A stretch of DNA of 53,407 nucleotides from Chloroflexota bacterium (GTDB taxonomy: Bacteria; Chloroflexota; Limnocylindria; Limnocylindrales; CSP1-4), in NCBI GenBank assembly GCA_034666725.1, contig JAXDLE010000011.1, forward strand, positions 1 to 53,407, written 5' to 3'. The position numbers and the translations under genes were made by a program. Below are positions 3,877 through 20,668 of the stretch, piece by piece. Numbering within the stretch: the stretch's first letter is position 1; every line of letters begins with the position of its first letter. The notes under the pieces were generated by a model. The model had not been told where the DNA came from and made no database searches. It was given only the letters and a program-made list of their open reading frames with translations.

Positions 3877-3924
3877 GCCGCGCAGACTAGTTGCTGGCCC
3901 GATGATGGATGATGACGCCAGCAC

Positions 3925-4293
3925 ATGAGCGAGCCGCACAGATTTGCCGCGCTTGGGAGCGAGCCGATCCGCACTATCGGCCGCGACGAGCTGAAGAGCA
4001 AGCTCGATCGGGGCGACGACTTCAAGCTCGTCATGGCCCTCAACCGGTGGGCGTACGACGCCAAGCACATACCCGGCTCGCTCCACTTCGACAGCCCAGC
4101 GGAGCTCTATGCCGCCGTGCGACCGGACGACGAGGTGGTCGTCTACTGCTCGCATAACGACTGCCTCTCGAGCGTCGCGATGTACCGCGACCTCGTGAAA
4201 CGCGGCTACAGCAACGTCAGACGTTATTCCGGCGGGTTGCTCGAATGGGAGGACTCCGGCCTGCCTCTGGAAGGGAATTCGGTGGGCGAGTGA
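3925..4293 (+). CDS. Rhodanese-like domain protein (single-domain sulfurtransferase)
   Basis: 122 aa. It contains 'AKHIPGSLHF' and the active-site loop 'VVVYCSHNDCLSS', which are typical rhodanese-domain features. Confidence 0.8.
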   Translation: MSEPHRFAALGSEPIRTIGRDELKSKLDRGDDFKLVMALNRWAYDAKHIPGSLHFDSPAELYAAVRPDDEVVVYCSHNDCLSSVAMYRDLVKRGYSNVRRYSGGLLEWEDSGLPLEGNSVGE

Positions 4294-4787
4294 CGCACAC
4301 GTCCGATCGGTTGCCCGAGCTCCCGTCTGAACATCCCTATCGCGCCCAGATCGACTCCGAGCGGACGGGTTGGTACGAACTCGCGGGCCTGGTTCGGAAT
4401 CTCAGCCCAGAGGAGTCCGTCCTCCCCGGTTATTACAAGAATCCCGACTGGTCGGTGCGCGACGTCGTCGCCCACATCGGCACCTGGCTCGCTCAAGCGG
4501 AGGTCCAGCTCGAGCGCCTCCGTGCCGGGACCTACGAAGGGCACGACATCGACATCGACGCGCTCAACGACGAGATGCTCGACTTGATGAGCGACCAGCC
4601 GTGGAGCGTCGCCTGGGTTCAAGCCAACGCCGGTAGGACGCTGATGCTCCAGGACTTTTACGCGCTCAACAAGCCCGATGCGGAAGCCGCCTGGTGGGTC
4701 GAGAAGTCGGGCGGTGCCCATTACGCCGAGCACCTCCCGCGGCTGAGGGACTGGGTCGCCGAGCTGATCGCCCGCCGCGAGATCTAG
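4290..4787 (+). CDS. DinB-family / mycothiol-dependent-isomerase-like (DinB_2) protein
   Basis: ORF 4245..4787 trimmed to GTG 4290, which overlaps the rhodanese stop (GTGA). The 'WSVRDVVAHIGTW' His-containing helix and the C-terminal 'AHYAEHLPRLRDW' are typical of DinB-fold metal-binding triads. Confidence 0.6.
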   Translation: MTHTSDRLPELPSEHPYRAQIDSERTGWYELAGLVRNLSPEESVLPGYYKNPDWSVRDVVAHIGTWLAQAEVQLERLRAGTYEGHDIDIDALNDEMLDLMSDQPWSVAWVQANAGRTLMLQDFYALNKPDAEAAWWVEKSGGAHYAEHLPRLRDWVAELIARREI

Positions 4788-4813
4788 GATGCCGGCGTGG
4801 GCATTGGCCGATT

Positions 4814-6142
4814 TCAGTCCTCGGGGGCTGCCACCGCGAAGAGCCGCATGTCGCCAGGTATCCCCTTGAGGGTGTGCGTGCCTCGATCGACGAATCTGAT
4901 ACCTGATCCGGCCACCAGATCTCGGACTGTCTGGGAGACGAGGACTTCGTTCGGACTCGCCATTGAGGCGACGCGTGAGCCGATGGTCACGGCAATGCCC
5001 GTGATCTTGTCATCATGCGGTTCGCACTCTCCGACGTGGATGCCGACCCGCGCTTCGAGGCCCAGCGCGCGGACTCCGTCAGTGATGGCCCGCGCTGCAC
5101 CGATCGCCCGCGCCGGACCATCGAAGGTTGCGAAGAAGCCGTCGCCAGCTGTGTCTCGTTCGTGTCCGCGAAACCGACTGAGCTCTCGTCGGACAACGGC
5201 GTGGTGGCGGGAGAGCAGGTCGCGCCAGTTTCGATCGCCGATGCGGGCAGCGTGGTCAGTTGAGCCGACGATGTCAGTGAACATGACCGTGGCGAGGACG
5301 CTCTCCGGTACTGATGGGGCGTCTTCGCCGGCGACAAATCGCTCGATCTCGTCCGCGATGTCGTGTGAGAGAAAGGTCCCGTAATCGTCGTTGCCCGAAA
5401 CGCGCATCGTCTTGGCACGCGGAATACGCGACGCCACCTCCATCGTGCTTACCTCGCGCGGGGAGCGGTAGAGGAGCAGCGTCGGGACGCGCAGTGTCGG
5501 CAGCACATCGCGCAGGTCGGTTTCGTTTACCGCACGGTTGAGCGCATAAGCGACGGCGGGACTCGCCCCAACCCGCAGGTGGTCCGCGAACGAACGACGC
5601 TCGGCCTCGCTGGCAGCGAGAGACGGACAGATGTCCCAGAACAGTTCGTCACACCAAGCCTGGGTGCCCCAACCCTCTCGGAGACGTGCCAGTTCCTGCA
5701 AGTCGGCTTCCGATAATCCGTTTTGCAGCGCGGTGTGAAAGAGCACGAGCGCACGCGTTCGCTCTGGGTACGAAGCGGCGAACATGACGGCCATCCCGCT
5801 CCCCTCCTGCGCGCCGAATACCACTGGACGCGACGACCCTGCCGCATCTAGAACGGCGTGCAGGTCCTCCATGCGTGTCTCCAACGTTGCGAACTGGCCG
5901 CCGTGATCGGAGATGCCGGTTCCACGCTTATCGAACAGGATCAAGCGGAACGAGCGGGCCAGGCGGAGATAGAAATCGCGCAACGGCGGATACCCCCAGC
6001 CGTAGACGAGATTCGAGACCCAGTCCGGAACGTAGACAAGGTCGACATCCCCCTCGCCGACAACCTGGTAGGCAATCGCGACCCCACCGTTTCGCGCGTA
6101 CCGGATATCAGCCGTGCTCAAGCGCTGGGCATCCAACTCCAT
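4814..6142 (-). CDS. Alpha/beta-hydrolase fused to a class III adenylate/guanylate cyclase (LipJ/Rv1900c-like architecture)
   Basis: ORF trimmed to ATG 6142 (MELDAQRL), because the longer form overlaps the helicase gene. The N-terminal half is hydrolase-fold-like (FDKRGTGISD..., AQEGSGMAV in place of the nucleophile elbow). The C-terminal half, 'ATVMFTDIVGSTD...DTAGDGFFATFDGP...VGIHVGE', is a class III cyclase core. Confidence 0.8.
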   Translation of the reverse strand: MELDAQRLSTADIRYARNGGVAIAYQVVGEGDVDLVYVPDWVSNLVYGWGYPPLRDFYLRLARSFRLILFDKRGTGISDHGGQFATLETRMEDLHAVLDAAGSSRPVVFGAQEGSGMAVMFAASYPERTRALVLFHTALQNGLSEADLQELARLREGWGTQAWCDELFWDICPSLAASEAERRSFADHLRVGASPAVAYALNRAVNETDLRDVLPTLRVPTLLLYRSPREVSTMEVASRIPRAKTMRVSGNDDYGTFLSHDIADEIERFVAGEDAPSVPESVLATVMFTDIVGSTDHAARIGDRNWRDLLSRHHAVVRRELSRFRGHERDTAGDGFFATFDGPARAIGAARAITDGVRALGLEARVGIHVGECEPHDDKITGIAVTIGSRVASMASPNEVLVSQTVRDLVAGSGIRFVDRGTHTLKGIPGDMRLFAVAAPED

Positions 6143-6165: not shown

Positions 6166-7581
6166 CTAGCCGCGGGTGAGGCGTTCTCCGGGGATGCTCA
6201 CCGGGCGGCCGATTGAGCCCTGGGAAGGCCGAGGGCCACCGTAGGCGGGCCGACTCTGACCGTAGGCAGGCCGACTCTGACCGTAGGCAGGCCGACCACC
6301 ACTTTGGGCTGGCCGACTCCCACCCTGGGGCCGGTCCGTTCGCTGGGGCTGCCACTCGCGCCGGGGTGCCGGGCGGAAAGCAGCTGGTCGGGACTGTTGG
6401 CCGGCGGGTCGGCTGCCGCGGTTCTGGATGGGCTGCGGGCGGATCGTTCGGTCGGGGGTGAAGCCCGGGATGATCTCCTGCTCAATGCGATGGCCGAGCA
6501 GGCGCTCGATCTCGCCGAGCATCGAATTCTCGTCGACGCAGACCAGCGAGATCGCGTCACCGTCGGTGCCTGCACGGCCGGTGCGCCCGATGCGATGCAC
6601 GTAGTCGGATGCCACCATGGGCAGCTCGTAGTTGACGACGTGGGGGAGGGCATCGATGTCCAGGCCGCGCGCCGCGATGTCTGTCGCGACGAGGATTGCC
6701 ACCTTGTTGCGCTTGAAGTCGGTCAGCGCGCGAACGCGCTGCGGCTGGCTCTTGTTGCCGTGGATGGCAACCGCGCTGATGCCGTCGAGGACCAGCTGCT
6801 GGACGAGCCGATCGGCGCCGTGCTTGGTGCGCGTGAAGACCAGCGCCTGGTAGATGCGACCGCTCTTGACGAGCTGCGACAGGAGCTCGCGCTTGCGGCT
6901 CTTGTCGACCGGCATCACGATCTGCTTGACGAGATCGGGCGCAGTGTTCTTGGGCGTGACCTGGACGTACGCCGGATCCTTCAGGAACTCCGCGGCAAGG
7001 CGGCGGATCTCCATCGAGAACGTGGCGCTGAACAGCAGGTTCTGGCGCGCAACTGGGAGCAGCGCGATGACCTTCTTGATGTCGTGGATGAAGCCCATGT
7101 CGAGCATCCGGTCGGCCTCGTCGAGCACCAGAACCTCGACCCGGGACAGGTCGATCGTGCGCTGGCCCACGTGGTCGAGCAGCCGGCCCGGCGTAGCGAC
7201 GACGATCTGCGGTCCCTGGCGCAGGTTGCGGACCTGCTGCTCAAAACCAACGCCGCCGTAGATGACGGCCGATTGGACCGGTCGCTGCTTGCCGTACGTG
7301 CGGACGCTTTCCTCCACCTGGAGGGCAAGCTCGCGCGTGGGGGTGAGGACGAGCACGCGGATAGGGCTCCGGCCCTCGCGCCTGCTCGCGTTCAGTTTTT
7401 GGAGGATGGGCAGCACGAACGCGGCCGTCTTGCCCGTACCCGTCTGGGCGCCGGCGAGCACGTCGCGGCCCGCGAGCACATGGGGGATTGCTTCGCTCTG
7501 TACGGGCGTGGGCTCTGTGTAGCCCTGCTGCGCCACGGCGCGAAGCAGCTCGGGCGTCAGCCCGACTTGATCGAAAGACAC
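6166..7581 (-). CDS. rhlE: DEAD-box ATP-dependent RNA helicase (RhlE-like) with an Arg/Pro/Gly-rich repeat tail
   Basis: GTG start 9 nt after AGGAG. Motifs present: Q motif (TPVQ), [15 protein letters not shown] and HRIGRTGR. The C-terminal ~90 aa are low-complexity. Confidence 0.9.
6241..6296. repeat. 21-bp tandem repeat (about 2.7 copies) inside the helicase 3' end
   Basis: The units are gtaggcgggccgactctgacc, gtaggcaggccgactctgacc and gtaggcaggccgacc. On the minus strand they encode [21 protein letters not shown]. Confidence 0.9.
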
Positions 7582-7766
7582 GAGGAATAGCTCCTGACGA
7601 GGCCCTCCCGCTCTTGGCGGGGCCCGGTCAGGGCTTAATTAGTTGGTGGATCGAGTCGAACGGAACTTACCGGGGCGCAGACCGGAGCGCCCAACGAACA
7701 CGAGGTGAGCCCGAAGGATAGCAGACGACGAACAAATGTTCGAGTCGGCGGCACCCGCCGCTCAAC

Positions 7767-7982
7767 TCAGGCTTGCGGCTTGGGGCGCTCCGTTTCGACG
7801 TTGTCTGTGTCGACGTCGCTGACCGTCGCGCGCTCCTGCGGCGCCAGGCCGGGCACACCGCCGATGCCTTCGCTCAGGTCCGTGGGATCGGACCTGGCGG
7901 CCTTTTCCGCTGGGTCTGCGCGAGACGGATTCCGCGTGTCCGGGCCACTGGCGAGCGTCGCGTCGCTCTTGTCGTGGGTCAT
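7767..7982 (-). CDS. Small acidic, disordered hypothetical protein (71 aa)
   Basis: MTHDKSDATLASGPDTRNPSRADPAEKAARSDPTDL... Its ATG overlaps the stop of the upstream small ORF (ATGA at 7982-7979). Third-codon positions are strongly G/C, like real genes here. Confidence 0.45.
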   Translation of the reverse strand: MTHDKSDATLASGPDTRNPSRADPAEKAARSDPTDLSEGIGGVPGLAPQERATVSDVDTDNVETERPKPQA

Positions 7983-8167
7983 CGAACCGGCCCTGGCTTG
8001 ATCGTCTTTGCGGGGTGGTTCTTGGACCCGCCGCCCCACTGCGTGGCGCCGCCTGCGCCCGTCCCCAGGTTGTGGGATAGCCCTTGATCGGGCCGCCCGG
8101 TGTACGCGTCCTTGGGATGCTGGCTCTTGGCTGGGTTGTTCTTGTCTGGCGTCTCTCGTTTGCTCAT
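7979..8167 (-). CDS. Small basic, hydrophilic hypothetical protein (62 aa)
   Basis: Internal ATG 8167 of ORF 7979..8227 gives MSKRETPDKNNPAKSQHPKDAYTGRPDQGLSHNLGTGAGGATQWGGGSKNHPAKTIKPGPVR. By hand count, about 80 % of third positions are G/C. It is coupled to the downstream small ORF. Confidence 0.45.
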   Translation of the reverse strand: MSKRETPDKNNPAKSQHPKDAYTGRPDQGLSHNLGTGAGGATQWGGGSKNHPAKTIKPGPVR

Positions 8168-8304
8168 GCATACGAATATCGCGCGGCGGGCGCAACAGTC
8201 GTGACTCAGGGCGCCCCTGCCCAGCATTACGAGTGCGCGACTACTACCGCACCGGTCACGCGACGCCGACTCGCGAATAGCCAGGACGTTCCGTCCGAAG
8301 ATGA

Positions 8305-9279
8305 CTACATTCGCGACAGAAGGTCGTTCTTCTTCTGCTCGAACTCGTCTGCGGAAATGATCCCAGCATCGCGGAGCTCGGCCAGCTTCTTAATCTGATC
8401 AGGGATATCGACTTGAGGTGCCGCTGCCGCCGCGGGCCTGGTTCGCTCGAGCCGGATAGCCCGCATTCGCTGTTCGACTTCGACCTTGACACGCTCGAAG
8501 GCCTCGCGCCGACTCGAGTCAAACATCACCGCGTTCTCATCTTCGGACGCTGTTTTCGCTGCTGTCGAACCACCGATGAGCTCAAACTGAATATGACCGA
8601 GCCAAAGCGACCCGGGGTTGCGCCACTGGATTCCAGCGATCTGGTCGATCCAGACATCCTTGTCACCTTTCTGAAAGCCCTTGGTCATTAGGCCCCGCAG
8701 GCCGTGATGTTTGATCCGGATCTTGTCGGGGAACACCCAAACGTGTCCGCCGTTTCCCTCCGCCTCAATGATCAGCGACTCGCTGTCGCCGGGCATGTGA
8801 CTTGACCGCGTCTGCGCTGGACCAATGACTCCAAGTTCCTCCGCCTCTATCAGGCTCTTGCCCTCGGCCGCGCCAACACTCGGCACATTCCGGATGAGCC
8901 TTTCGACCTCAGGCGCAAGTGTCTCCGCGACCTTGTCGCTCTTCGTTTGAATGACATAGTCAAGTTTGCCGAAGTCAGAGAATCCAAACGCCTTTGAAGG
9001 TAGGCTCGGTCCGGCCAGTGCCAAACAACTCTTGAAGCCCTTTTGAAGGTCGACCCCGTCGAGTACCTCATAGGGCCATCTCCGCCATCCGCCCTTCGAG
9101 TAGATGTAGGCCGCTGAATCAGTTGCCACCAGGCCAGCCTTACCCATGCCGTTGATTACTACTCGGATTGTTTCTGCCTCCGGAATGACGCCGATCAGCG
9201 CCACGTGAATGTCCGGATGGAGCCGGTTCAGATCGTTTGGCGCTCCGACGTCAGCCGTGACACACCTCCCACCAAGCAA
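8305..9279 (-). CDS. DUF4429 (bacterial PH-like) domain protein with a C-terminal SHOCT domain
   Basis: 'GHVWVFPDKIRIKHHGLRGLMTKGFQKGDKDVWIDQIAGIQWRNPGSLWLGHIQFELIGG' resembles DUF4429. The C-terminal 'IKKLAELRDAGIISADEFEQKKNDLL' is a SHOCT motif. The start is uncertain (TTG 9279 or GTG 9204). Composition is low G+C. Confidence 0.65.
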   Translation of the reverse strand: MLGGRCVTADVGAPNDLNRLHPDIHVALIGVIPEAETIRVVINGMGKAGLVATDSAAYIYSKGGWRRWPYEVLDGVDLQKGFKSCLALAGPSLPSKAFGFSDFGKLDYVIQTKSDKVAETLAPEVERLIRNVPSVGAAEGKSLIEAEELGVIGPAQTRSSHMPGDSESLIIEAEGNGGHVWVFPDKIRIKHHGLRGLMTKGFQKGDKDVWIDQIAGIQWRNPGSLWLGHIQFELIGGSTAAKTASEDENAVMFDSSRREAFERVKVEVEQRMRAIRLERTRPAAAAAPQVDIPDQIKKLAELRDAGIISADEFEQKKNDLLSRM

Positions 9280-9395
9280 TGATCCCTCGGCACGTCCGCG
9301 GTCGCAATGGCTGACGCTCGGTAACCATTCCCAATTTGGGCGAGCAATCCAACAGGGGTGCCGACGCGCCTTCTAGGCGTCATGATCTGCTCGGC

Positions 9396-9793
9396 ATGTC
9401 GACAATGGATGAGGCGACCACTCGGACCGCGCTGATCGATCCGACCCTGCACTCCCGAGGCTGGACCGAGGAGCTCATCAAGCGCGAGGAAACTCTCGGC
9501 ACCGTCGAGATCGTCGCTACGACCTGTCTGGCACCAAGGTGACGAAGAACCAACCGCTCACCATAGATCGCTTTGAAGAGTTCTTCGCGCTCAAGGATGC
9601 GCGGGCGGACTCAGAGCACTCGTGGACGCTCGCGCGCGCGGAGATCGAAGCCCGAGGGTTTGACCTCAAGGCCGTCAACCCGAACGCAAAGTCGGATGTG
9701 GACACGCGAACGCCGGCTGAACTGTTGGCTGAGATCGAGGAACGCCACGCCGAGGTCGGGGAGGCAATCGCGGAGCTGCGGCGCCTGCTATAG
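9396..9793 (+). pseudogene. Type I restriction-modification remnant: HsdR N-terminal fragment abutting an HsdM C-terminal fragment
   Basis: 9396..9542 encodes MSTMDEATTRTALIDPTLHSRGWTEELIKREETLGTVEIV, which resembles the start of the HsdR N-terminal domain, then stops after ~48 aa. 9539..9793 encodes ...SWTLARAEIEARGFDLKAVNPNAKSDVDTRTPAELLAEIEERHAEVGEAIAELRRLL, which resembles an HsdM C-terminal tail. No methylase core, HsdS or HsdR helicase/nuclease region is present. Confidence 0.6.
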
Positions 9794-9874
9794 GAGCGCC
9801 CAAGCGCAGTATGTAAGCGGCATCTCCAGAGTTTGGCTGCGGCTCATCAGTTGTTGCACCTGCAGCACCGCGAC

Positions 9875-10309
9875 CTAGAGGCCCGGCACCTGTCCATCAG
9901 CGGGCCACTCGCGGTACTCGCACCCAGCGGCGATGAGGCGTCGTATCGGACGGCTCTTGTCACCGTTGATGTGGACGTGCGCTGCGCCGAAAGACAAGTC
10001 GTTCGGCTCCCAAGTCACCCCCAATCCGAGGCCGCGCAGAAGCGCGACTGTGATCGCGACGACCCCAAACCCTTCAAAACCTGCGATAAGGTCGCGCGCA
10101 GCAGCTCCCAATTCGTGCAAGCGCGTTTCCTCGAAAACCGAAACCGCGGTCTTGCCGGTCTCTCGGTCGGTCAGGTTTTGGAACGCATTACTGGTCACGC
10201 GCAGCGCGTTTCCATCCATTGCCATCTGGCTTGGATGTACTACCCTCAGAACGTAGGAGTCGTCACCGATGGACTCGTCGTCTTGCGGTCCCTCATCCAC
10301 GCTCGCCAT
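9875..10309 (-). CDS. Hypothetical protein (144 aa), last gene of the island operon
   Basis: ATG start 12 nt after the stop of the upstream gene. It has an acidic N-terminus (MASVDEGPQDDESIGDD) followed by 'YVLRVVHPSQ...RVTSNAFQN'. I recognise no family. Confidence 0.6.
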   Translation of the reverse strand: MASVDEGPQDDESIGDDSYVLRVVHPSQMAMDGNALRVTSNAFQNLTDRETGKTAVSVFEETRLHELGAAARDLIAGFEGFGVVAITVALLRGLGLGVTWEPNDLSFGAAHVHINGDKSRPIRRLIAAGCEYREWPADGQVPGL

Positions 10310-10321
10310 TCACGCGGCGGG

Positions 10322-10819
10322 TCAGAGCCCTGGATGCACAAGGCTCGTTAGAACCTGAACGACACGCGGCAATGCACTGACAAGGTCGTCCTCCCACTCA
10401 GAGTTTGTTGCGGCGTCCATCAGGTAGGCGGTTGCGTTCCGAATGCCAGATGCACCTGACAACTCGATCGCAAACTCGAACAAAGGTCGACGCCATTCGA
10501 TCGAAATGCCGCCATCAGGTCGAGGGACGATCCGCGGCTCCTGAACGCTCTGGACTAGAAGTTGAGACAACACGTTCCTCGCGTCTGCTGCGGCTACGTC
10601 ACTTATCGGTTCTCCGCCATGCAGATCCCAATTCCGCCCCAGCCTGAGTAAAGGCGCAAGATGGGTTTCGATCCAGCGGTCGACAGCTCCGTGCGACCCA
10701 CCGAAGAGCCAATCCATTGAGCCGTATGCAAGGTCGGCAGAGCTCATTGTGGGTGTCTCGTGAGCGGGTTCCCGTCGGATGGCAGGGCTATTGGTGAGCT
10801 CACGTTCTGAAAGCACCAT
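10322..10819 (-). CDS. Hypothetical protein (166 aa), middle gene of the island operon
   Basis: ORF 10322..10915 trimmed to ATG 10819, 26 nt after the TIGR04255-like stop. It contains 'LGRNWDLHGGEPISDVAAADARNVLSQLL...PRIVPRPDGGISIEW'. I cannot name the family. Confidence 0.6.
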   Translation of the reverse strand: MVLSERELTNSPAIRREPAHETPTMSSADLAYGSMDWLFGGSHGAVDRWIETHLAPLLRLGRNWDLHGGEPISDVAAADARNVLSQLLVQSVQEPRIVPRPDGGISIEWRRPLFEFAIELSGASGIRNATAYLMDAATNSEWEDDLVSALPRVVQVLTSLVHPGL

Positions 10820-10845
10820 CCCTTGCGGGATCCACGTTGCGGTGA

Positions 10846-11685
10846 TCACGAGGCCTCCTTCCAGGATTGCTGAACATCCTCGCGGATAAGTCCGATAAAT
10901 GCCTTCCAGGCCCACTCTCTCCCTAGATCCTGAAAGGCGACAACGCCTTCGATGCCCTCGCCGATTGGGAGACCGCGCGCCGTGGAATTGAGTACGGCGA
11001 TTGCTTTTCCATCAGAACGTCGAACAGCAGTATTCACTGTGACATGAAGGCGGCCCACGCTGGCCCCTTCGTTGCTTAAGAGGTAATTCAACGCAATGCC
11101 CTGACCGTCGGGAGGCAGGTCGAATGATGCTGGAGGATCACTCACAACGGACAATATCGATGACAGAGGCAGATCCGCCTCTCCATCGGGCAGCTCGATA
11201 TGGTCGACGTATGTGATTTCGCACTGGGTGGGCACCAGTCCGCCGATCCCCTCGGACGCAAGGTAACTCTGAAACTTCGTTAGGTCCGCGACGAATGCGT
11301 CACTGAGTGCCGGATACCGTGGATATCCTTCCTGATCGTCAACGCGACGCCAATTCCGCGCGAACCAATCGTTCTGGATTTGCACCAACTGGCTCCCGGC
11401 GTTGTCGATCAGCCAGAGTCTGGGTAACGCCACATCGACCAGCTCCAACGTAATGGTTGGCCCAGGTGGTTGGCCGAAAGTCTCGATCTGTAGCTTGTAT
11501 GGCGGCTTTTGCTCCACGTTGGGGAATCGTTCCTTGAATGCCGCCCAAAGCCCTCCGAACTGGACCACAGTGAAGGGGAGTGGCTGAAATCCGACCGAGA
11601 GGATGAGTTCCCGGATAGGGGGCGCCAAGAAACGCAAGTGCGAACTGATTCCGCGCTGGCTGGCTGTGCTCACCGGCTTAGGCAT
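10846..11685 (-). CDS. TIGR04255-family protein (sporadically distributed, function unknown)
   Basis: ORF 10846..11970 trimmed to ATG 11685. The blocks 'PPIRELILSVGFQPL', 'RLWLIDNAGSQLVQIQNDWFARNWRRV...GYPRY' and 'QCEITYVDHI' match my recollection of the TIGR04255 signature. This was not searched. Confidence 0.6.
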   Translation of the reverse strand: MPKPVSTASQRGISSHLRFLAPPIRELILSVGFQPLPFTVVQFGGLWAAFKERFPNVEQKPPYKLQIETFGQPPGPTITLELVDVALPRLWLIDNAGSQLVQIQNDWFARNWRRVDDQEGYPRYPALSDAFVADLTKFQSYLASEGIGGLVPTQCEITYVDHIELPDGEADLPLSSILSVVSDPPASFDLPPDGQGIALNYLLSNEGASVGRLHVTVNTAVRRSDGKAIAVLNSTARGLPIGEGIEGVVAFQDLGREWAWKAFIGLIREDVQQSWKEAS

Positions 11686-11798
11686 GTGACGTCGTGGTGC
11701 TTCGGGCTGGCCGCAATATGCAAAAGATACTAGGGAACCCACACTGCCGGATGAGTCTGTGCTCGGGTGGGAGCCGACCCAGCGGTCAGCGCGAATAG

Positions 11799-12059
11799 CT
11801 AGTGCACGCTCCAGCGGCGCCAAGGCAGCGCGCTTGCGGGGATCTTCGACAGGAAGCGGACGATGTCGGGCCTGCCTCTGTATTCGATCCGCTGACCTTC
11901 TCGTCGCGCCATAAATACGACATTTGCCCCCGGCCACCAGCGGTGACAATCCGGCAGCAGGCGCTCCCACGCTCGTGGCGAATCAAAGATGTGCGCCTTG
12001 ACAGGGACTACTACGAAGGTGACGCCTTGCTCTTTGACTAGTGCAGCTTCAACGCTCAT
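11799..12059 (-). CDS. Small hypothetical protein (86 aa)
   Basis: ATG start preceded by AAGGGAG with ~9 nt spacing. The product is MSVEAALVKEQGVTFVVVPVKAHIFDS...RGRPDIVRFLSKIP. I recognise no family. It lies 113 nt upstream of the TIGR04255-like gene. Confidence 0.55.
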   Translation of the reverse strand: MSVEAALVKEQGVTFVVVPVKAHIFDSPRAWERLLPDCHRWWPGANVVFMARREGQRIEYRGRPDIVRFLSKIPASALPWRRWSVH

Positions 12060-12136
12060 GACAGTAGCTCCCTTATGACGCCTATATGCCGGTAGGCAAG
12101 TTCCCAGACGAGCGTGACAGCTTGCGTGGCACGATC

Positions 12137-15100
12137 TCAGCTACAGCCGGACGTGGAGCCGCAGTTCAAGCACTTGTAGCAAGAGCCATTGCGGACCATG
12201 ATCGAGCCGCAGTCCGCGCACGAGGGCGAGTCGGCCGAGACGGAGAATGCGACTTTTGGGCCGCCGCCGAGCTCAACACCTCCGGCGCTCAGAGGCTTCA
12301 GAGGCAGGGCAGGCGTGGCGTGGCCGTTTGAGTAGGCCAGGTTGGAGTGGACGGGGAGGTCGGTGCCGCCGACAGCGCTTGCGGGAGGAGGTTCCGCAAT
12401 CATCGCCGACGCTTTGGGCCCACCGGCCTCCCCGATGGTTGAAGTATCAACCTTCTCTGACGTAGGGGCGAGGGGAGATGCGACTTCTGACGCGATTGGC
12501 ATTTCTGAAGCGGCCGCGGCAGGTGTCGCGGAACCACCCCAGGACTCAGGGAGCGCACCGTACTGTGCGTCGACGTCGTCCCTGCTGATGATGCCGAGAG
12601 CGTCGCGCTCATCCTTGCCCAGGAACCGACTTCCCATCCAGCGGAAGATGTAGTCCACGACCGACTTGGCGATCGGGATCTCCGGGTTGCCGGTGAAGCC
12701 AGCCGGCTCGAAGCGCGCGTGGGCGAACTTGTTGACCAGGTCGCGCAGCGGCACGCCGTACTGGAGCGACAGCGAGGTCATCGTCGCCAGCGTGTCCATG
12801 AGACCGCTGATCGTCGAGCCCTCCTTGGACATCTTGAGGAAGATCTCGCCGGGCGTCCCGTCGGGGTACAGGCCGACCGTGATGTAGCCCTCGTGGCCGG
12901 CGACCTGGAACTTGTGCGTGAGCGCGCGGCGCTCATCTGGCAGGCGGCGGCGATACGGCTTGGGCTCAGGCGGAAGCGCAGCCTCGACAGGGGCGGCGGC
13001 AACTGGCGCTGCCTCAACCACTGGCGCATCCTTCTTCTTGCCCGTCGAGAGCGGCTGCGAGCGCTTGCTGCCATCGCGATAGATCGCGATCGCCTTCAGG
13101 CCGAGCTTCCAGCCCTCCATGTAGACATCGGCGATCTCGTCGGCCGTGGCCGCCTCGGGCATGTTGACGGTCTTGGAGATGGCGCCTGAGATGAACGGCT
13201 GCGCCGCGCCCATCATGCGGACGTGGCCCATGTAGTGGATGGAGCGCTCGCCGTTGACCGGCTTGAAGGCACAATCGAAGACGGACAGATGGGCAGGAGA
13301 GAGGTGCGGGGCGCCCTCGATGGTCTCGTGCTCGTCGATGAACCTGACGATCTCTTCGACCTGCGTCGGGCTGTAGCCGAGCTTGCGCAGGGCCGCGGGC
13401 ACCGTCTTGTTTACGATCTTGAGGAAGCCCTCACCGACCAGCTTCTTGTACTTGATGAGCGCGATGTCCGGCTCGATGCCGGTCGTGTCGCAATCCATCA
13501 TGAAAGCGATCGTGCCAGTCGGCGCAAGCACGGTCACCTGGGCATTGCGATACCCGAACTGCGTGCCCAGTTCGAGTGCCGCGTCCCAGGATGACCGTGC
13601 CGCGTCGATCAAATCGGACGGCGCGCCGTCGCCAGCGGGGATGGCGTACGCCGCGTCGCGGTGTTTTGCGATGACTCGGAGGAAAGGCTCCTCGTTCTTG
13701 CTGTATTCCTTGAACGCGCCACCGTGGTCGCGCGCGATAACGGCCGACTGGGCGTAGGCCGAGCCGGTCATGATCGCCGTGAGTGCAGCCGCGGTCGCGC
13801 GGCCCTCGTCGGAGTCGTACGCCAGGCCGCGGCTCATGAGCAGCGCGCCAAGGTTGGCGTAGCCGAGGCCGAGCGGGCGGAAGAGGTGCGAGTTGAGCTC
13901 GATCTGGGGAGTCGGGTACCCGGCGTTGTCGACCAGGATCTCCTGCGCCGTGATCGTCAGGCGCGCGGCGTACTTGTACGCCTCGATGTCGACCTCGCCA
14001 TCTTCCTTGACGAACTTCATCAGGTTGAGGCTGGCCAGGTTGCAAGCGGTGTCGTTGAGGAACATGTACTCGGAGCACGGGTTGCTGCCGTAGATGCGGT
14101 CCGTGGCGAGCGACGTGTGCCAGTCGTTGATCGTGGTGTCGTACTGGATGCCGGGGTCGCCGCAGATCCAGGCGGCGTCGGCCATGCGCTTGAAGACGTC
14201 GCGCGCCTTGTAGGTGGCCTCAGCCTCGCCGCTGACGATGCCGATCGTGTCCCAGTCTTTGTCCGTTTCGACGGCGTGCATGAAGTCGTCCGTCACGCGC
14301 ACGCTGTGGTTCGCGTTCTGGAACATGACGCTGCCGTAGGCCTCACCGGTGAATGACGCGTCGTAGCCTTGCTCGATCAGCGCCCAGGCCTTCTTTTCCT
14401 CGTTCGCCTTGGAGTCGATGAAGTCGAGGACGTCCGGGTGGTCGGCGTTGAGGATGACCATCTTGGCCGCGCGGCGGGTTGTGCCGCCCGACTTGATGGC
14501 GCCGGCGAACGCGTCTAGGCCGCGCATGAAGCTGACGGGGCCGCTGGCCACGCCGCCCTTGGAGAGCCGCTCGTTGGCGCCTCTTAGCGGGCTGAGATTG
14601 ACGCCCGAGCCGGAGCCGTACTTGAACAGCATCGCCTCTGTCTTGGCGAGGTCCATGATGCTGCCCATGTCGTCGCGGACCGAGTTGATGAAGCACGCCG
14701 AGCACTGCGGCTTCTCTTCGACGCCGACGTTGAACCAGACCGGCGAGTTGAAGCTCATCTTCTGGTTGACCAGCAGATGCGTCAGCTCAGCCTTGAATGC
14801 CGCCAGGTCGTCCTGCGACGCGAAGTAGTGCTGCGTCGCGGCCCATGCGGAGATGGTGTTGACCACGCGGTCGATGAGCTGCTTGACGCTGCGCTCGCGG
14901 CCGGGTGAGCCGACGTGGCCGCGGAAGTACTTGCTGACGACGACGTTGGTCGCGAGCTGGCTCCAGAAGGACGGCACCTCGATGTCTTCCTGGACGAAGA
15001 CGACCTTGCCCGACTCGTTCTTGATCTCCGCGGTGCGCAGCTCCCAGGTGATCTCGTCATAGGGATGAACGTCAGGCCGCGTCCAGCGCCGATCCCACTC

Positions 15101-15271
15101 GAGGCCGTTCACGCCGCGGCCGGTGAAGCGACCGTCCGCGTCGATGGGGGAGCGCTCCGCGTCGTGCTTCTCAAGCACCCCGATGAGCTCCGAGTTGGCG
15201 GCGATCACTGACGTTCCGTCGTCGTTCGTCGCGGTCGCTTCTGTGCTCTCGGAACCCGGCGCCTGCAGCAT
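12137..15271 (-). CDS. nrdJ: Class II (adenosylcobalamin-dependent) ribonucleoside-diphosphate/triphosphate reductase
   Basis: ORF 12137..15634 trimmed to ATG 15271 (MLQAPGSE), preceded by GGAGAGAGGGAG. The active-site region is '...YGSNPCSEYMFLNDTACNLASLNL'. The C-terminal Cys cluster is 'CADCGSIMVRNGSCYKCLNCGSTSGCS'. I see no intein-like insertion. Confidence 0.92.
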   Translation of the reverse strand: MLQAPGSESTEATATNDDGTSVIAANSELIGVLEKHDAERSPIDADGRFTGRGVNGLEWDRRWTRPDVHPYDEITWELRTAEIKNESGKVVFVQEDIEVPSFWSQLATNVVVSKYFRGHVGSPGRERSVKQLIDRVVNTISAWAATQHYFASQDDLAAFKAELTHLLVNQKMSFNSPVWFNVGVEEKPQCSACFINSVRDDMGSIMDLAKTEAMLFKYGSGSGVNLSPLRGANERLSKGGVASGPVSFMRGLDAFAGAIKSGGTTRRAAKMVILNADHPDVLDFIDSKANEEKKAWALIEQGYDASFTGEAYGSVMFQNANHSVRVTDDFMHAVETDKDWDTIGIVSGEAEATYKARDVFKRMADAAWICGDPGIQYDTTINDWHTSLATDRIYGSNPCSEYMFLNDTACNLASLNLMKFVKEDGEVDIEAYKYAARLTITAQEILVDNAGYPTPQIELNSHLFRPLGLGYANLGALLMSRGLAYDSDEGRATAAALTAIMTGSAYAQSAVIARDHGGAFKEYSKNEEPFLRVIAKHRDAAYAIPAGDGAPSDLIDAARSSWDAALELGTQFGYRNAQVTVLAPTGTIAFMMDCDTTGIEPDIALIKYKKLVGEGFLKIVNKTVPAALRKLGYSPTQVEEIVRFIDEHETIEGAPHLSPAHLSVFDCAFKPVNGERSIHYMGHVRMMGAAQPFISGAISKTVNMPEAATADEIADVYMEGWKLGLKAIAIYRDGSKRSQPLSTGKKKDAPVVEAAPVAAAPVEAALPPEPKPYRRRLPDERRALTHKFQVAGHEGYITVGLYPDGTPGEIFLKMSKEGSTISGLMDTLATMTSLSLQYGVPLRDLVNKFAHARFEPAGFTGNPEIPIAKSVVDYIFRWMGSRFLGKDERDALGIISRDDVDAQYGALPESWGGSATPAAAASEMPIASEVASPLAPTSEKVDTSTIGEAGGPKASAMIAEPPPASAVGGTDLPVHSNLAYSNGHATPALPLKPLSAGGVELGGGPKVAFSVSADSPSCADCGSIMVRNGSCYKCLNCGSTSGCS

Positions 15272-15377
15272 GTTCGGGGTCTCCCTCTCTCCTCGTAGCG
15301 GGGCCGTCTGGGGCATCTGGGCCGGCCAGCCGCATCCCCCAATGCTAGGCATGGGGTAGGGCAGTGTCAAGACTGAA

Positions 15378-15395
15378 ACCACAACATCTGGTGGT
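15378..15395. promoter_or_regulatory. NrdR-box-like imperfect palindrome upstream of nrdJ
   Basis: accacaacatctggtggt matches its own reverse complement at 14 of 18 positions. It lies ~107 nt upstream of the nrdJ ATG. Its outline resembles the 16-bp NrdR box. I could find only one box. Confidence 0.3.
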
Positions 15396-15459
15396 CCGGC
15401 TTGTTTTGTAATGCTAGGCCTAGTGGTTCGGTGAAAACCGTGGTGGACAGCCCGTGGAG

Positions 15460-15528
15460 CGTCTGGGGACCGTCTGGGGACGCTCGGTGGACGGCCGACG
15501 ACGCCCAGTGGACGGCCGATGACGCCCT
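15460..15528. repeat. Short tandem repeats (11 bp x2 and 21 bp x2) in the nrdJ upstream region
   Basis: cgtctggggac occurs at 15460-15470 and again at 15471-15481. gtggacggccgacgacgccca (15487-15507) is followed by gtggacggccgatgacgccct (15508-15528). Confidence 0.85.
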
Positions 15529-15540
15529 CAGCCGGCATGG

Positions 15541-15910
15541 CAGGACCGATGCCGGTGTGGCTGGCATATCGGGGACATCGGACGCTTAAGCACCGACCAA
15601 CCCCCCCGCCGCCACGCTCAGTTTCCGCGCGCACGCTGACTTGGGGTGCGCGGCAGACTCCTTATGCCGCGCCTGTGGCAGTTATGCCGGTGTGGTTGGC
15701 ATTCAAGAGCCTGGGCCCGGCTTGACGTTGGCAATGTCGGCGTGGCCGACATATCGGGGCTAATAGAGGCTTAAGGCACCGATTGATCGGCCGTCTCACC
15801 CTCAGCTCGAGTCGGACACGCTGGCGTGGAGCCCGCCCCGAGTCGCTTGTGCCTCGCCAAGGCCAGTTATGTCGGTGAGGCCGACACTCCAAGGGTCTAG
15901 GCGGCGGCAC
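15541..15910. repeat. Diverged 185-bp tandem duplication (2 copies) containing four 19-nt hairpins
   Basis: The anchors are offset by exactly 185 nt. Hairpins A 15549-15567 and C 15734-15752 are each followed by atcgggg...gcttaag(g)caccga. 'cacgctg' occurs at 15632 and 15817. Hairpins B 15684-15702 and D 15869-15887 are each preceded by g(g)cagttat. Confidence 0.85.
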
Positions 15911-15922
15911 GGTCGCCCATCT

Positions 15923-16717
15923 TCAGGGGCCGCGCCTGCCGAATTCGTCCAGAAGCAGTTGGATCTCACCCACTTTGCGGAACCCGACGCCCTCCAGCAC
16001 GGGCCGGGACATCTGTCCGCCCTGAGTGAATAGCGCGGGCGTGCCGTTACGAACGGCCTCATCCCAGCGAGCGTTCAGCAGCGCCCGATAGCCGCCGCGA
16101 CCGCGAGCGCTCGGAAGGGTCGCGCCACCGAAGAGCAGCAGGCCGTGCTCGGTGATTGCCGAGGTGCCGGCCGAGACCATCTCCCCGTCGATCCAGGCGG
16201 CGTGCATCACGTTCACGGTTTCGCGCCAGCGCTCTTCGAATTTGGAGCGCGCCTCGGCGATCTCGTCCTCCGTTGATTCGAACGCCTTCATCTGAACCTC
16301 GTTCGCTGTCACGTACTCGTCGAAGGTCTCGAGCCGCCGCGCGACCACTCCGGGCGGCGGCGCCGGTGGCGGCTGAGTCAGGACGAGGGCTGCCGCGACT
16401 GGATCCTTGTCGCGGATCAGTCCCAGTGCGAGCAAGCGATCGACGAGGTCATTCGGAGTCGCTTTGCTCCCGACTTCCCACTGGGTCGACTCACGGCCGC
16501 GCTGGCGCAGCAGGCCGCGAACCTCCTCGACGGCCGTCTCAACCTGGTCTGCCGCCAACCGTTGACGCTGCACGGTGTTCCACTTGGAGCCGCCCGCGCC
16601 AATCCACAGGCTGTATCGGTCGTTTTCGATCAGCTCGTCGCGCGGTCCGAGCGGCGCGAACGAATTCGGGTACTCGGCGATCTCGCGCAGCAGCTCGTCG
16701 TCATCGGACAGCGTCAC
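15923..16717 (-). CDS. GNAT family N-acetyltransferase
   Basis: ORF trimmed to GTG 16717, which overlaps the stop of the upstream giant gene (GTGA). The C-terminal 'LLLFGGATLPSARGRGGYRALLNARWDEAVRNGTPALFTQGGQMSRPVLEGVGFRKVG' is an acetyl-CoA-binding (R/Q-x-x-G-x-G/A) region. Confidence 0.7.
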   Translation of the reverse strand: MTLSDDDELLREIAEYPNSFAPLGPRDELIENDRYSLWIGAGGSKWNTVQRQRLAADQVETAVEEVRGLLRQRGRESTQWEVGSKATPNDLVDRLLALGLIRDKDPVAAALVLTQPPPAPPPGVVARRLETFDEYVTANEVQMKAFESTEDEIAEARSKFEERWRETVNVMHAAWIDGEMVSAGTSAITEHGLLLFGGATLPSARGRGGYRALLNARWDEAVRNGTPALFTQGGQMSRPVLEGVGFRKVGEIQLLLDEFGRRGP

Positions 16718-19700
16718 GCCGCCTTCGAGGCCCAAACTTCGGCGGCCCGGGCCGCGCGCGTTTCGATGTAGGCCAGGATGGGCGATTGAGCGCCGTAACG
16801 ACGGTTGACGGCTCGGGCCTTTTCGAGCCATTCCTCAGCTTCCGCGGCGCGTCCGTGGCGCAGGAGGAACTCGCCCAACGTCATTTGTTCTTCCCAGATC
16901 GCAAAGGCGACCCGTTCGGTGATGGCCGCTGCATCGCGGAGCAGCCGCTCGGCCTCCGCGTCGTTGCCCTGCGCCTCGCGCAGCATGCCCAGGACCATGC
17001 CGGTGGTCGCGATAGTGACCAGGTCATCCTTCGAGGTGATCCGAACAGCCTCATCGATGACCGGCTCCGCCTCAGCCAGGCGTCCCATCTCGATGAGGAT
17101 TTGCGCTATTCGCCGCATTGCCTCCGGCTTGTAGCCGACGTGCCCGGCCACGTGTTCTAACGCCTGCCGGTGAAGTGCCAAGGCCGCCTCTTTGTCATCG
17201 CGCTTCATCGCGATTTCACCCAGATGGCTCAGCGTCACGTACTGCTCCTCGTGGGCGCCGAATTCTTCGAGCGTTGGCAACGCGGACCTCAGCGCCCGCT
17301 CGGACACGGCCGTGTCAACGCGTTGGTTGTAACTGCCGAATATGCGCTCGATCTGCGCCTGGATGAGCCGGCTGTTTCCCTTGGCGGCGAGAGCGCGCGC
17401 TTCCGCCAGCAGCTGGCCGACGTCTCCGCCTTCGGTGCCTAGCCCCCTCGCGCGCACCAGTTGGCTCACGGCCTCCGCCTCTTGGCTCGCCCAGCCATGG
17501 GTACGGGCGATTTCACGTTGCTCGGACCAGAACTTGTTTGCCTCGACGAGGTCGCCGCGCCACCAGCCGCGGTAGCCGAGCAGCTGAAGCACACCGAGCA
17601 GGTGCAAATCATCGCCCGATGCCTCGAGCAGTTTCCGGGCGCGGTCGAGCTCGGCGAATGCCCCTGCCGTATCGGACCTCTCGGGGCTGATCCATTGGTC
17701 ACCCGCCTTGGCTAGGACAGCGCGCCCTTCGATGTCACTCCGGCCGAGCGCATGTGCGTCGATCTCGAGCTGTGCCGCGAGCTCGCCGGACCGCCGGTAC
17801 TGGCTCTGGCGACGAAGCGAGTCGATGTGCAGCCACCGAATCTCGAGGCGCTGCTCGCCGGGCTCAGGATCGAGTGCCAGCGCTCGTTCAGTGAAGCTAA
17901 GCGCCGCGCGGGAGTCGTCACGTGCCTTGGCTTTCTGACCGCTGGCAAACAGGGCATCGACGGCCCGCTGCTTGTCGGCCGGATCCGCTCGTCCGGTCAG
18001 CTCCAACTGCAGGAGTACCCGCTGCTCGAGGTGATAGGCCTCGATCTCGACGAATTCATCGATGCGCGCGCCGGCCCAGGCGCGAAGCCAATCGGCGACG
18101 GCGCCGTGCAGCTCCGCGCGTTGCGCCTTGGGCAGCGTCGCGTAGGCAACATCGCGAATCAGGATGTGGCGGAAGCGGAACGTGGGCTCGGCTGCAGTGC
18201 GCTCGTCCGTGATCAGGTCGCGCAGCACGGCATCCTCGAGGTGGCGCGCAAGTAGGCCGGCGCCCTCTGTTGGTGAGATGGCCGCCACGGCTGATCGCTG
18301 GAAGATCCGACCGACTACCGACGCTGCCTGGAGGACCTTCCGCTCCGGTGCAGGCAACGTGTCGAGACGTGCGCGGATCAGGGCTTCGACGCTCTCTGGG
18401 ACCCGGACCGACGATGCCGCCTGGTTTGCGACCCAGTGATCGCCCTTGCGCTCGACCACGCCCTCCTCGATGAGCATGCGAACGACCTCCTCGACGAAGA
18501 GAGGGTTGCCCTCGGCACGGTCCAGGATGCGCTGCCGCAATTCCGGCGGGAGGTCGTCAACGGTGAGGAGTGCACCCAGCAGCGTGCGCGACTCGGCTTC
18601 AGTGAGCGGCTCGAGTGAGATGCGGCTGCCTTCCATGCGTCCAGCGCCCCAAGCCGGTCGCGTGTCGATCAGCTCGGGCCGTGACGGGCAGACCACGAGC
18701 AGCGGCGCGTCGCGGGTCCATGTGACGAGGTACTCGATGAGGTCGAGGAGGGGCGGCTCGGCCCAGTGGATGTCCTCGAAGACGAGCATCAGCGGCCCGC
18801 GCTCGCGCACGAGATGCTCGACCAGCGCGCGAAAGCCCCAAGCGATCTCGCGATCTCCGCCGGTGCCCGTCTCTCCGGCGCCCGGCCCGGATGGACCAGT
18901 CGCTCCCACTATTAGCGCGAGCCGATCTGCAACGCCCGGATCGGGACTGACGTCCGCCAGCCGAGTCGCCGCTTCGTCGGGTGACATTTGCGGCGTGATC
19001 CCGCAGAGCTCACGCACGATGTCCGCGACAGGCCAATAGGTGATGCCGTCGCCGTAGGGCAGGCACCGGCCCTTGACCGTCGACCAACCTTCGGCGGCAA
19101 GGCGTGCGGAGGCCTCGCGCACGAGCCGGCTCTTGCCCACACCGGGCACACCGAGGATCGTGAACAGCGTGGCCTTGTTCTCCTGTTTTGCGCGACGCGC
19201 GGCGTCCAGAAGAAGATTGAGTTCCTCGTCCCGGCCGGTCAGCGGCGCTTCCAGGCCGGGCACGCCGCGCGGCCGGCCAACGTCGCTCGCGATGTCCTTC
19301 ACGCGCCAGCCCTCGAGATTCTGGTCGCGACCCTTGAGCGCGAGGTCGCCCATCGACTCGGCCGCGACCAGATCGCGAACCTGTTCCCACACTGTTGGGC
19401 CGATCACGATCTCACCGGGCTCTGCCTGCTGCTCCAGCCGGGCGGCGATGTTCATCGTGTCGCCAGTGGCCATCGTGGCGCCACCAAACGGATCGCCCAC
19501 CACGACCTCGCCGGACTCAATTCCGATACGCGCCTGGAGCGCAATGCCATGACGTTCCTGGGTGTCCACCGCGACCGCCGCGATGCCGTCGCGGATCGCT
19601 AGCGCAGCTCGGACGGCGCGTTCGGGATCATCCTCGTGTGCCTGCGGTAGGCCGAAGACAGCCATGACCGCGTCCCCACTGAACTTCTCGACGGTCCCGC

Positions 19701-19932: not shown

Positions 19933-19942
19933 GGCGCCAATG

Positions 19943-20668
19943 CTATGCGGGCGGACCCGTGGCGGGCCGGTCCCAGACGGCGGTGTACCAGAGGAGCGTG
20001 GAGTCGGAGCTGCGCCGGTGGAAACCCTCGGCCGCCAGGCGCCGCTCGATGTCGTCGACGCTGTGGACGTAGCCGGGACAGTCGTCCTTCCGGACGCGCG
20101 TGAGCAGCGACTCGAAGCCCCACATGATCTTGTTGGCGAGACCGCGCACGCCGCGTGAAGTGGGCACGCTGAATGCGACTCGCGCCGGCTTTGCGGACAG
20201 TGCCGCGCCAATGAGCCGGGGCATATCCGGGTAGCAGCAGATCGCGCGGTCGAGCAGCACCCAGTCGTGCGCGGCGTGGGTCACGCGGGCGCCGTCGGCA
20301 ATCTCGAAATGGGCACGTTCGGCTACGCCTGCGTCTGCCGCGCGGCGCTGGGCAGTCGCGATCGCCTCCGGGGAGAGGTCGACCCCATCCGCGGCACTGG
20401 CGCCGCGCGTCAGCAGTGTCACCAGGAGGGCCGCGCTGCCGCAGCCAAGTTCGAGGATCGTCGGCCGCGCGTCCGCGACATCGTCCAGCTGCGCCAACAG
20501 CCGCTCCGAGACGGCGACCATGGACGGAAGCACGGTCCCGTCTTCTGTGCGCTGGCGGGTCATGTGGTCGAAGTGTGCTGGGATGCGCGGGTCGGGGCAG
20601 CAGTCGGCAGCGGCCGGCCTGGCGGGAGAGTCAGGGGAGTCGGTCCTGTTGGGCCCGTCGGCTAGCAT
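19943..20668 (-). CDS. Class I SAM-dependent methyltransferase
   Basis: Motif I is 'ILELGCGSAAL' and an acidic post-I motif 'GVDLSPEAI' follows. Overall it is about 240 aa. The start could be an internal ATG. Confidence 0.7.
   Translation of the reverse strand: MLADGPNRTDSPDSPARPAAADCCPDPRIPAHFDHMTRQRTEDGTVLPSMVAVSERLLAQLDDVADARPTILELGCGSAALLVTLLTRGASAADGVDLSPEAIATAQRRAADAGVAERAHFEIADGARVTHAAHDWVLLDRAICCYPDMPRLIGAALSAKPARVAFSVPTSRGVRGLANKIMWGFESLLTRVRKDDCPGYVHSVDDIERRLAAEGFHRRSSDSTLLWYTAVWDRPATGPPA

Follow-up and report, generated by a model that had tools for sequence, protein, structure and literature searches.

A Mobile Three-Gene Module of a TIGR04255 Protein and Two Probable Remote Relatives of the Phage-Defence Candidate PDC-M32 in a Chloroflexota Contig

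Introduction

TIGR04255 is an orphan NCBIfam family that is noted for being 'sporadically distributed' and has no assigned function. A full-text search of the literature returned no paper on TIGR04255, CHP04255 or IPR026349, and in that search neither a function nor a partner was found for it. The locus presented here joins a member of this family to two further proteins. It consists of three head-to-tail open reading frames (ORFs) on the minus strand, at 11685–9875 of a contig (JAXDLE010000011.1, assembly GCA_034666725.1) from a Chloroflexota metagenome-assembled genome (MAG); the whole stretch of 53,407 nucleotides (nt) that was analysed is called the window. The genes are named g1, g2 and g3 in their order on the minus strand, and a preliminary description of the window had put them forward as an undescribed module.

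Two kinds of described systems are useful for comparison in terms of organization. Tripartite toxin-antitoxin-chaperone (TAC) systems are HigB-HigA-SecB-like. In type II toxin-antitoxin (TA) systems, the antitoxin usually carries a DNA-binding domain of the helix-turn-helix (HTH), ribbon-helix-helix (RHH) or AbrB type for autoregulation. In terms of sequence, the comparison is with PDC-M32, a phage-defence candidate in PADLOC that was obtained by 'guilt-by-embedding' prediction as cassette CAS_00128, with the cassette order FAM_01821>>FAM_00608 (Payne et al. 2024, bioRxiv 10.1101/2024.01.29.577857).

Set against this background, what is new here is a TIGR04255-g2-g3 module that matches no PADLOC system model and in which, judging from sequence similarity, two of the genes are remotely akin to those of the catalogue candidate. 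That is to say, the word 'undescribed' can be kept for the module as a system, but not without qualification for g2 and g3, which appear to be remote relatives of the PDC-M32 proteins.

Gene Structure and Translational Coupling

g1 (10846..11685, minus strand) encodes 279 amino acids (aa) from an ATG, and the deposited protein P0157 has exactly this sequence. g3 (9875..10309, minus strand) encodes 144 aa with an acidic N-terminus and is identical to the deposited P0001. g2 lies between them (10322..10849, minus strand) and encodes 175 aa from a revised GTG start, comprising a predicted disordered N-terminal tail and an alpha/beta domain. Since each of the three has protein-level homologues at 22–60% identity in many independent contigs, they are regarded as real genes and not as chance ORFs.

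The start of g2 follows from its junction with g1 (10846..10860, minus strand). There, an in-frame GTG (10849–10847) overlaps the TGA stop of g1 (10848–10846) as GTGA and is preceded by the Shine-Dalgarno-like AAGGAGG (10860–10854). This start adds the residues MITATWIPQG to the protein, and homologues keep equivalent residues (MIESAWMPRG, MIETAWTPRG). Moreover, of 17 further distinct loci, 14 have a g2 start that lies 4 or 8 nt ahead of the g1 stop. For these reasons, g2 most likely begins at GTG 10849 (175 aa) and not at ATG 10819 (165 aa, 26-nt gap). The GTGA overlap and the Shine-Dalgarno-like sequence together imply translational coupling of g1 and g2, and the spacing between g2 and g3, read from the sequence, is 12 nt. 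With intact ORFs, the GTGA overlap and this short gap, the earlier reading of the three minus-strand genes as one coupled module holds. Its sizes for g1 and g3 and its 12-nt gap are also retained, but the 166 aa given for g2 and the 26-nt gap in front of it are replaced by 175 aa and an overlap.

The g2 protein of the window is absent from a database of 5.8 billion proteins, and the locus tags of g3 (QOJ81_221) and g1 (QOJ81_222) are consecutive; the deposited MAG therefore seems to lack an annotation for g2. In other collected loci (L001, L023/L024, L025 and L039), g2 or g3 was likewise overlooked or shortened in gene calling.

Conservation and Mobility of the Module

g1-g2-g3 is a translationally coupled, horizontally mobile operon that distant lineages have kept as a unit. 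Searching with a g1 profile gave 558 proteins, from which six metagenomic relatives (34–41% identity) were taken for examination of their neighbours, in addition to one on a plasmid. All seven of these g1 relatives (29–41% identity for the whole set) have g2 and g3 homologues downstream in the same order. Co-occurrence of the three families in other genomes had been set beforehand as the test of the module, and they do co-occur widely: the complete modules add up to 19 distinct ones, on MAG and metagenome contigs, one Mycobacterium plasmid and two viral contigs. Throughout the related loci, the gene junctions measure between −11 and +26 nt, and two look-ups begun from g2 representatives ended in full modules again. 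None of the three genes is missing from the close relatives L001 to L006, and the module of L001, too, stands beside nrdJ, the gene of a class II ribonucleotide reductase. MAGs of Limnocylindrales, Nitrospira, Planctomycetes and Gemmatimonadales are among the named sources of g1 relatives; of these four groups, Limnocylindrales is the one for which gene surroundings were examined.

One copy is on a plasmid of Mycobacterium paragordonae (NZ_CP025547.1, 79746–81485), where mobF, a relaxase gene, immediately precedes the module (hmmsearch E 2e-42 for TIGR04255, 3e-16 for g2 and 3e-9 for g3); it is the sole match among 72,556 plasmids. Two viral contigs of IMG/VR carry the full module. On the first of them (L038, IMGVR_UViG_3300049218_000483, 3923–5719), it is placed like a moron within a tail gene cluster of the gene transfer agent (GTA)-like or siphovirus type, flanked by DUF2460 and BR0599/baseplate hub genes on one side and by a Phage-tail_3/Rcc01698_C host-specificity gene on the other. 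On the second, it adjoins genes for an integrase, a UvrD helicase and a ParB-methylase. The module was absent from 50,697 sequenced phage genomes, and a scan of genome contigs gave 2 loci only. It is rare in cultured collections (1 of 72,556 plasmids, none of 50,697 phage genomes).

The neighbours vary around the module, and restriction-modification (RM) genes recur among them. MmeI-type RM enzymes adjoin L004 and L022, a type I RM locus adjoins L031, and a type I RM remnant lies next to the module in the window. The downstream neighbour in L001 to L003 is a fragmented DUF2075/SLFN-type helicase. L022 also has DUF4411 with M78 nearby, L025 has PIN/NYN/HTH genes and an integrase, L031 also has SocA_Panacea, and L033 has a FitA-like RHH gene. 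Together with the relaxase and tail genes mentioned above, this is a setting typical of defence, TA and mobile regions, as the preliminary description had supposed from the window by itself. The modules of the window and of L001 are chromosomal and adjoin nrdJ, with no other mobile-element genes. The low-G+C island described there earlier is also real: G+C is 0.586–0.615 across 8001–12000, compared with 0.64–0.70 on both sides, and the island includes the HsdR/HsdM remnant at 9390–9793.

Relationship to PDC-M32 and Architecture Variants

The similarity to PDC-M32 is confined to g2 and g3. g2 matches PDC-M32A with E 6.7e-9, only over positions ~255–365 of 375, and ten further g2 relatives match the same part; g3 matches PDC-M32B weakly (E 0.003, 16 bits), and 9 of 18 g3 relatives match it at E<=0.01 (best 9e-7). 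In other words, g2 corresponds to the C-terminal domain of about 100 aa of PDC-M32A, and g3 is probably a remote relative of PDC-M32B. The order is also the same (A>>B, with g2 then g3 in all loci), the genes overlap or nearly do so in both cases, and type I RM loci are associated with both. There are also differences. PDC-M32A is a single protein of ~375 aa whose N-terminal ~255 aa are unlike TIGR04255 in sequence, whereas here a 175-aa g2 with a short disordered tail stands beside a separate upstream TIGR04255 gene. g2 gives no full-length match to PDC-M32A, g1 is found in no PADLOC model, and the conserved R92 of g3 is replaced by Gln in the PDC-M32B-type protein examined.

A Rhodococcus plasmid (L035) illustrates the PDC-M32-type pair: a 377-aa protein with a C-terminal g2 domain is followed by a g3-like protein of 143 aa, which hhalign aligns to g3 with a probability of 66% (E 6e-5). 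The N-terminal 255 aa of the larger protein give a probability of 0.2% against the g1 profile. Among the 275 collected proteins, there is no g1-g2 or g2-g3 fusion. An origin of PDC-M32A from a fusion of g1 and g2 was considered and rejected on these two results.

There is also a two-gene form of g2 and g3 without g1, found in L008 and L018, in which g2 has 130–140 aa. In the loci, which were gathered by g1 or g2 homology, no g3 was found without a g2 immediately in front of it. The g2 domain also occurs stand-alone in two viral contigs and within other architectures. g2 and g3 are the minimal core, which the PADLOC candidate PDC-M32 appears to have in common with the module.

One of the other architectures is that of an Acetobacter persici plasmid (L034, NZ_CP014688.1; 445–2036 and 4989–6294). 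It encodes a protein of 297 aa in which two g2-type domains stand in tandem; the next gene, which overlaps by 11 nt, bears the annotation of the ClpXP adaptor SspB, and its product is not g3-like; a second pair, 3 kb upstream, consists of a hypothetical protein and another SspB-annotated gene. The SspB-annotated gene may represent another partner class for the g2 domain. The idea that g3 itself might be SspB-like, which this annotation raises, was rejected.

The g1 Protein

g1 belongs to TIGR04255, as had been supposed. It scores 49.8 bits against the NCBIfam model (E 3.9e-13), for which the cut-off is 30 bits, and the model is also matched above its cut-off by all 33 sampled g1 relatives. The alignment of g1 covers only profile positions 4–171 of 252 and is not a full-length match; for this reason, g1 is taken as a divergent TIGR04255 subfamily. 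Its alignment contains the invariant polar residues R89, Q102, Q104, N111, R113 and Y121, and T158, Y159 and R237 are nearly invariant. Pfam gave no match for g1, g2 or g3, and none of the three matches a characterised metabolic family. None of the 33 g1 relatives matches a PADLOC model even at E<=10. Among the PDB sequences, no relative of g1 was found with the single sequence or with the g1 alignment profile, and no internal duplication was seen in g1. Its role in the module would be that of a sensor, a regulator or a chaperone-like partner of the N-terminal tail of g2.

The g2 Protein

g2 is divided into a tail (about residues 1–50, with the motif LSEREL) and a folded domain (about residues 50–172, with the motifs NWDxxG..P and P.DGGISIEW). 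In the AlphaFold2 (AF2) model, the predicted local distance difference test (pLDDT) score is about 60 for the tail, which is taken as disordered, and about 97 for the domain, in which a sheet of five strands is accompanied by two helices and by a further helix at the C-terminus. Foldseek returned nothing from the PDB at E<=0.001; the C-domain of sucrose phosphorylase, at a template modelling (TM) score of 0.24, was dismissed as uninformative. The family is large, with 1589 representative clusters at E<=1e-3, and 81 g2 relatives shared no consistent Pfam family. Neither g2 nor g3 had an NCBIfam or PDB-sequence match, and the PHROG matches of both were marginal (E >= 0.1). The motif 'NWDLHGGEPIS...DGGISIEW' pointed out in the preliminary description is present in g2, as is 'YVLRVVHP...RVTSNAFQN' in g3.

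The tail deserves attention on account of its distribution. In loci with g1, the NWD motif stands at g2 residue ~50–82, as against 12–44 in loci without g1, where g2 has no disordered N-terminal tail of about 35–50 aa. The tail consensus LS[DE]xD[VI] was found in 38 of 104 long-form g2 representatives and in 2 of 26 short-form ones. At the level of sequence, the presence of the tail thus co-varies with that of g1, and because g2 lacks the tail in pairs without g1, the tail probably binds g1. g2 is proposed to be a neutraliser or an adaptor.

The g3 Protein

The AF2 model of g3 is a compact alpha/beta fold (pLDDT 87, predicted TM score 0.82), for which Foldseek found nothing at E<=0.001 in the PDB or BFVD. 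No consistent Pfam family emerged among 18 g3 relatives, and the g3 alignment profile found nothing among the PDB sequences. Across 22 g3-type sequences, R22, S57 and H111 are invariant, and so is R92 except in the PDC-M32B-type protein with Gln; no acidic residue is conserved in this set. Because these Arg, Ser, Arg and His residues are invariant and stand without a conserved acidic residue, they suggest metal-independent chemistry on a phosphate-bearing substrate such as RNA or NAD+. g3 is proposed to be the effector (toxin) of the module.

Among the weak fold matches of g3, the only named proteins that recurred in two independent libraries are the RNA 2′-phosphotransferases KptA/Tpt1 and AvrPphF (HopF), an effector with the ADP-ribosyltransferase (ART) fold, with TM scores of 0.40 for 9ldi (E 1.9), 0.28 for 6e3a, 0.37 for 1s21 (AvrPphF) and 0.39 for a putative RNA 2′-phosphotransferase of phage PaBG (E 0.74). 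The hydrophobic-Arg pair in strand 1 of g3 and the Ser in a later strand are, in our reading, reminiscent of the motifs of ARTs. No fold match is significant, however (TM < 0.5, all E > 0.7), there is no sequence similarity, and g3 has no catalytic R-S-E, H-Y-E or R-H-R-R set and no conserved Glu, with the invariant His H111 instead. The Tpt1/ART-fold resemblance of the model is a lead and not a result.

The profile searches and the structure prediction with Foldseek comparison proposed in the preliminary description thus gave a family for g1 and confident models with no significant fold match for g2 and g3. Since two confident models are left without a significant match, there is a real chance that the module works by a new mechanism.

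Proposed Function and Its Alternatives

The explanation that we place first, at somewhat less than an even chance, is that the locus is a mobile three-component conflict module of the toxin-antitoxin-like kind, acting as an abortive-infection defence, an addiction cassette or both. In this scheme, g3 would be the effector, a small protein with an unmatched fold, and the folded domain of g2 would bind and neutralise it. g1 would hold the tail of g2 and set the state of the complex, either by stabilising g2 or by freeing g3 when infection is sensed. Such control by g1 would be analogous, not homologous, to that in TAC or in sensor-controlled TA systems. The likeness to TAC is one of analogy: the three genes are coupled, and a predicted disordered stretch extends g2, the putative antitoxin, in the loci that have g1. 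The analogy ends there: g1 has no Pfam match, so no SecB-like domain is detected in it; the extension is N-terminal here and C-terminal in TAC; the gene order is unlike; and neither a HigB nor a HigA homologue is present. As for type II TA, the difference is that g2 has no DNA-binding domain, no Pfam domain having been found in g2 or its 81 relatives.

In favour of this proposal are the operon coupling, the co-occurrence of the genes, the RM, TA and integrase neighbourhoods, the moron-like position in the prophage, the g2 tail that goes with g1, the apparent homology to PDC-M32 and the intact state of the genes beside a deleted RM locus. That g2 occurs alone, and that each g3 in the collected loci comes with a g2, is an asymmetry such as a toxin and its antitoxin would show. 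Antitoxin mimics encoded by phages are known as a means of counter-defence, and the stand-alone viral g2 domains would fit such mimics by analogy.

Several points weigh against it. No toxin, nuclease, NADase or ART family was found in g3 with Pfam, PADLOC, PHROGs or PDB sequences, and its matches to Tpt1/KptA and AvrPphF remain at TM 0.28–0.40 with E > 0.7. The AF2 model of g2 gave no HTH or RHH match, and g2 has no DNA-binding domain of the sort expected in a type II antitoxin. The step in which the tail binds g1 is a correlation only. The modules of L027 and L039 are among housekeeping genes with no defence neighbours. The loci were collected via g1 or g2 homology, so 'g3 never alone' is a biased test. 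The many invariant polar residues of g1 could make g1, and not g3, the enzyme. In the literature, no experiment on the g1, g2 or g3 families or on PDC-M32 was found.

A bolder form of the same proposal, which is speculative and rather unlikely as a whole, makes TIGR04255 the sensing or controlling subunit of a widespread, hitherto unrecognised tripartite immune or toxin family, which would grip a motif in the g2 tail and free g3 on infection, with PDC-M32 and the two-gene form as sisters. g2 would then be a new-fold neutraliser with more than 1,500 clusters, and the Arg/Ser/Arg/His site of g3 would act on RNA or NAD. The sensor would have been swapped in PDC-M32 and would be absent from the two-gene form, and the stand-alone g2 domains of phages would be counter-defence decoys.

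The invariant residues of g1 lead to an exchange of roles, which we regard as doubtful. Here g1 would be the catalytic protein or effector, and g2 an adaptor whose tail tethers g1 to g3; g3 would then serve as the subunit for sensing, specificity or regulation. g1 is indeed the longest of the three, invariant polar residues are most numerous in it, and g3 has no recognisable catalytic family. Moreover, PDC-M32 joins the g2 domain to a different N-terminal domain of ~255 aa; because of this different fusion, the N-terminal partner appears exchangeable, as effector modules often are. On the other hand, g1 matches no enzyme family, and in L008 and L018 the g2 and g3 pair survives without g1 or a fused N-terminal domain; since the pair persists in this way, g3 and not g1 appears to be the constant functional partner.

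The relationship to PDC-M32 might also be read more directly, namely that the module is the already catalogued PDC-M32 in split-gene form. The matches of g2 (E 6.7e-9) and g3 (E 0.003), the retained A-then-B order and the similar sizes of the TIGR04255 model (252 positions) and the N-terminal region of PDC-M32A (~255 aa) speak for it. This reading is nevertheless improbable: the g2 relatives reach only the last ~100 of 375 PDC-M32A positions, none of the 33 g1 relatives matches PADLOC, the N-terminus encoded in L035 is unlike g1 (0.2%), and no fusion occurs among 275 proteins.

About equally improbable is a function on behalf of the mobile element itself, against host defences or for establishment (e.g., anti-restriction). 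The positions beside a plasmid relaxase gene, by integrases and among the tail genes of a prophage, the repeatedly adjoining RM genes and the g2 domain alone in viral contigs would suit such a function, but the chromosomal modules of the window and L001 stand by nrdJ with no other mobile-element genes, some copies are among housekeeping genes, and none is in 50,697 phage genomes.

A regulatory or metabolic complex of the cell outside conflict, incidental to its island, would agree with the lack of a detected toxin or defence domain and with L027 and L039, which are flanked only by housekeeping genes, but it is very improbable in view of the sporadic spread across phyla at low identity, the varying neighbours around a constant module, the occurrence on a plasmid, on viral contigs and on islands with integrases, and the low-G+C island in the window.

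Three 'hypothetical' genes have thereby become a defined unit, in which the orphan TIGR04255 gains its first fixed partners (in the divergent subfamily examined) and a concrete hypothesis, the binding of the g2 tail. The g2 domain is a large family absent from Pfam, with a confidently modelled fold and no significant PDB match. With a confident unmatched model and a four-residue invariant site, g3 is a candidate in which new effector chemistry might be sought. A clonable version from a cultured organism is available on the M. paragordonae plasmid. If the module is a defence system, PDC-M32 would be extended into a family with interchangeable N-terminal partners.

Surroundings of the Module in the Window

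The low-G+C island is bordered by a DEAD-box helicase gene (6166–7581) and by nrdJ (12137–15634). The type I RM remnant (9390..9793, plus strand) lies outside the module and was recognised by tblastn against plasmids. Positions 9539–9793 (plus strand) are the C-terminal end (last ~84 residues) of the M subunit HsdM, at 59% identity, and ~9390–9518 (plus strand) are the first ~40 residues of the R subunit HsdR, at 58% identity, the latter match covering query residues 19–61 of the ORF 9336–9542. Because the N-terminus of HsdR directly abuts the C-terminus of HsdM, the sequence suggests that one deletion took out most of hsdR, hsdS and hsdM and left a remnant of ~0.4 kb. The three-gene module is intact despite this deletion in the adjoining locus.

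No tRNA was found around the module, and a scan for promoters and terminators gave nothing beyond the shuffled expectation. A repeat scan for the island boundaries returned short chance-level matches only. Neither a tandem repeat in 7500–12300 nor an Rfam match in 7000–17000 was found, by which a type III TA system (with an RNA antitoxin) or a regulatory RNA was ruled out. Two minus-strand genes 1 kb apart, at 12137–15634 and 16714–20211, both encode 1165 aa; they are unrelated (BLASTP E 1.0), and the agreement in length is coincidental.

Between nrdJ and the module, an 86-aa ORF (11799–12059, minus strand) matches phrog_23950 over its full length (E 3e-22). As the syntenic locus L001 lacks it, this ORF was probably inserted separately and does not belong to the module. 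The nrdJ orthologue of L001 (1543–6477) encodes 1644 aa with an intein and LAGLIDADG domains, whereas nrdJ of the window encodes 1165 aa without either. Within the same island, the product of 8305–9279 (minus strand) is 324 aa long and contains DUF4429 (E 2.8e-9) and, at its C-terminus, a SHOCT domain (E 2.3e-10).

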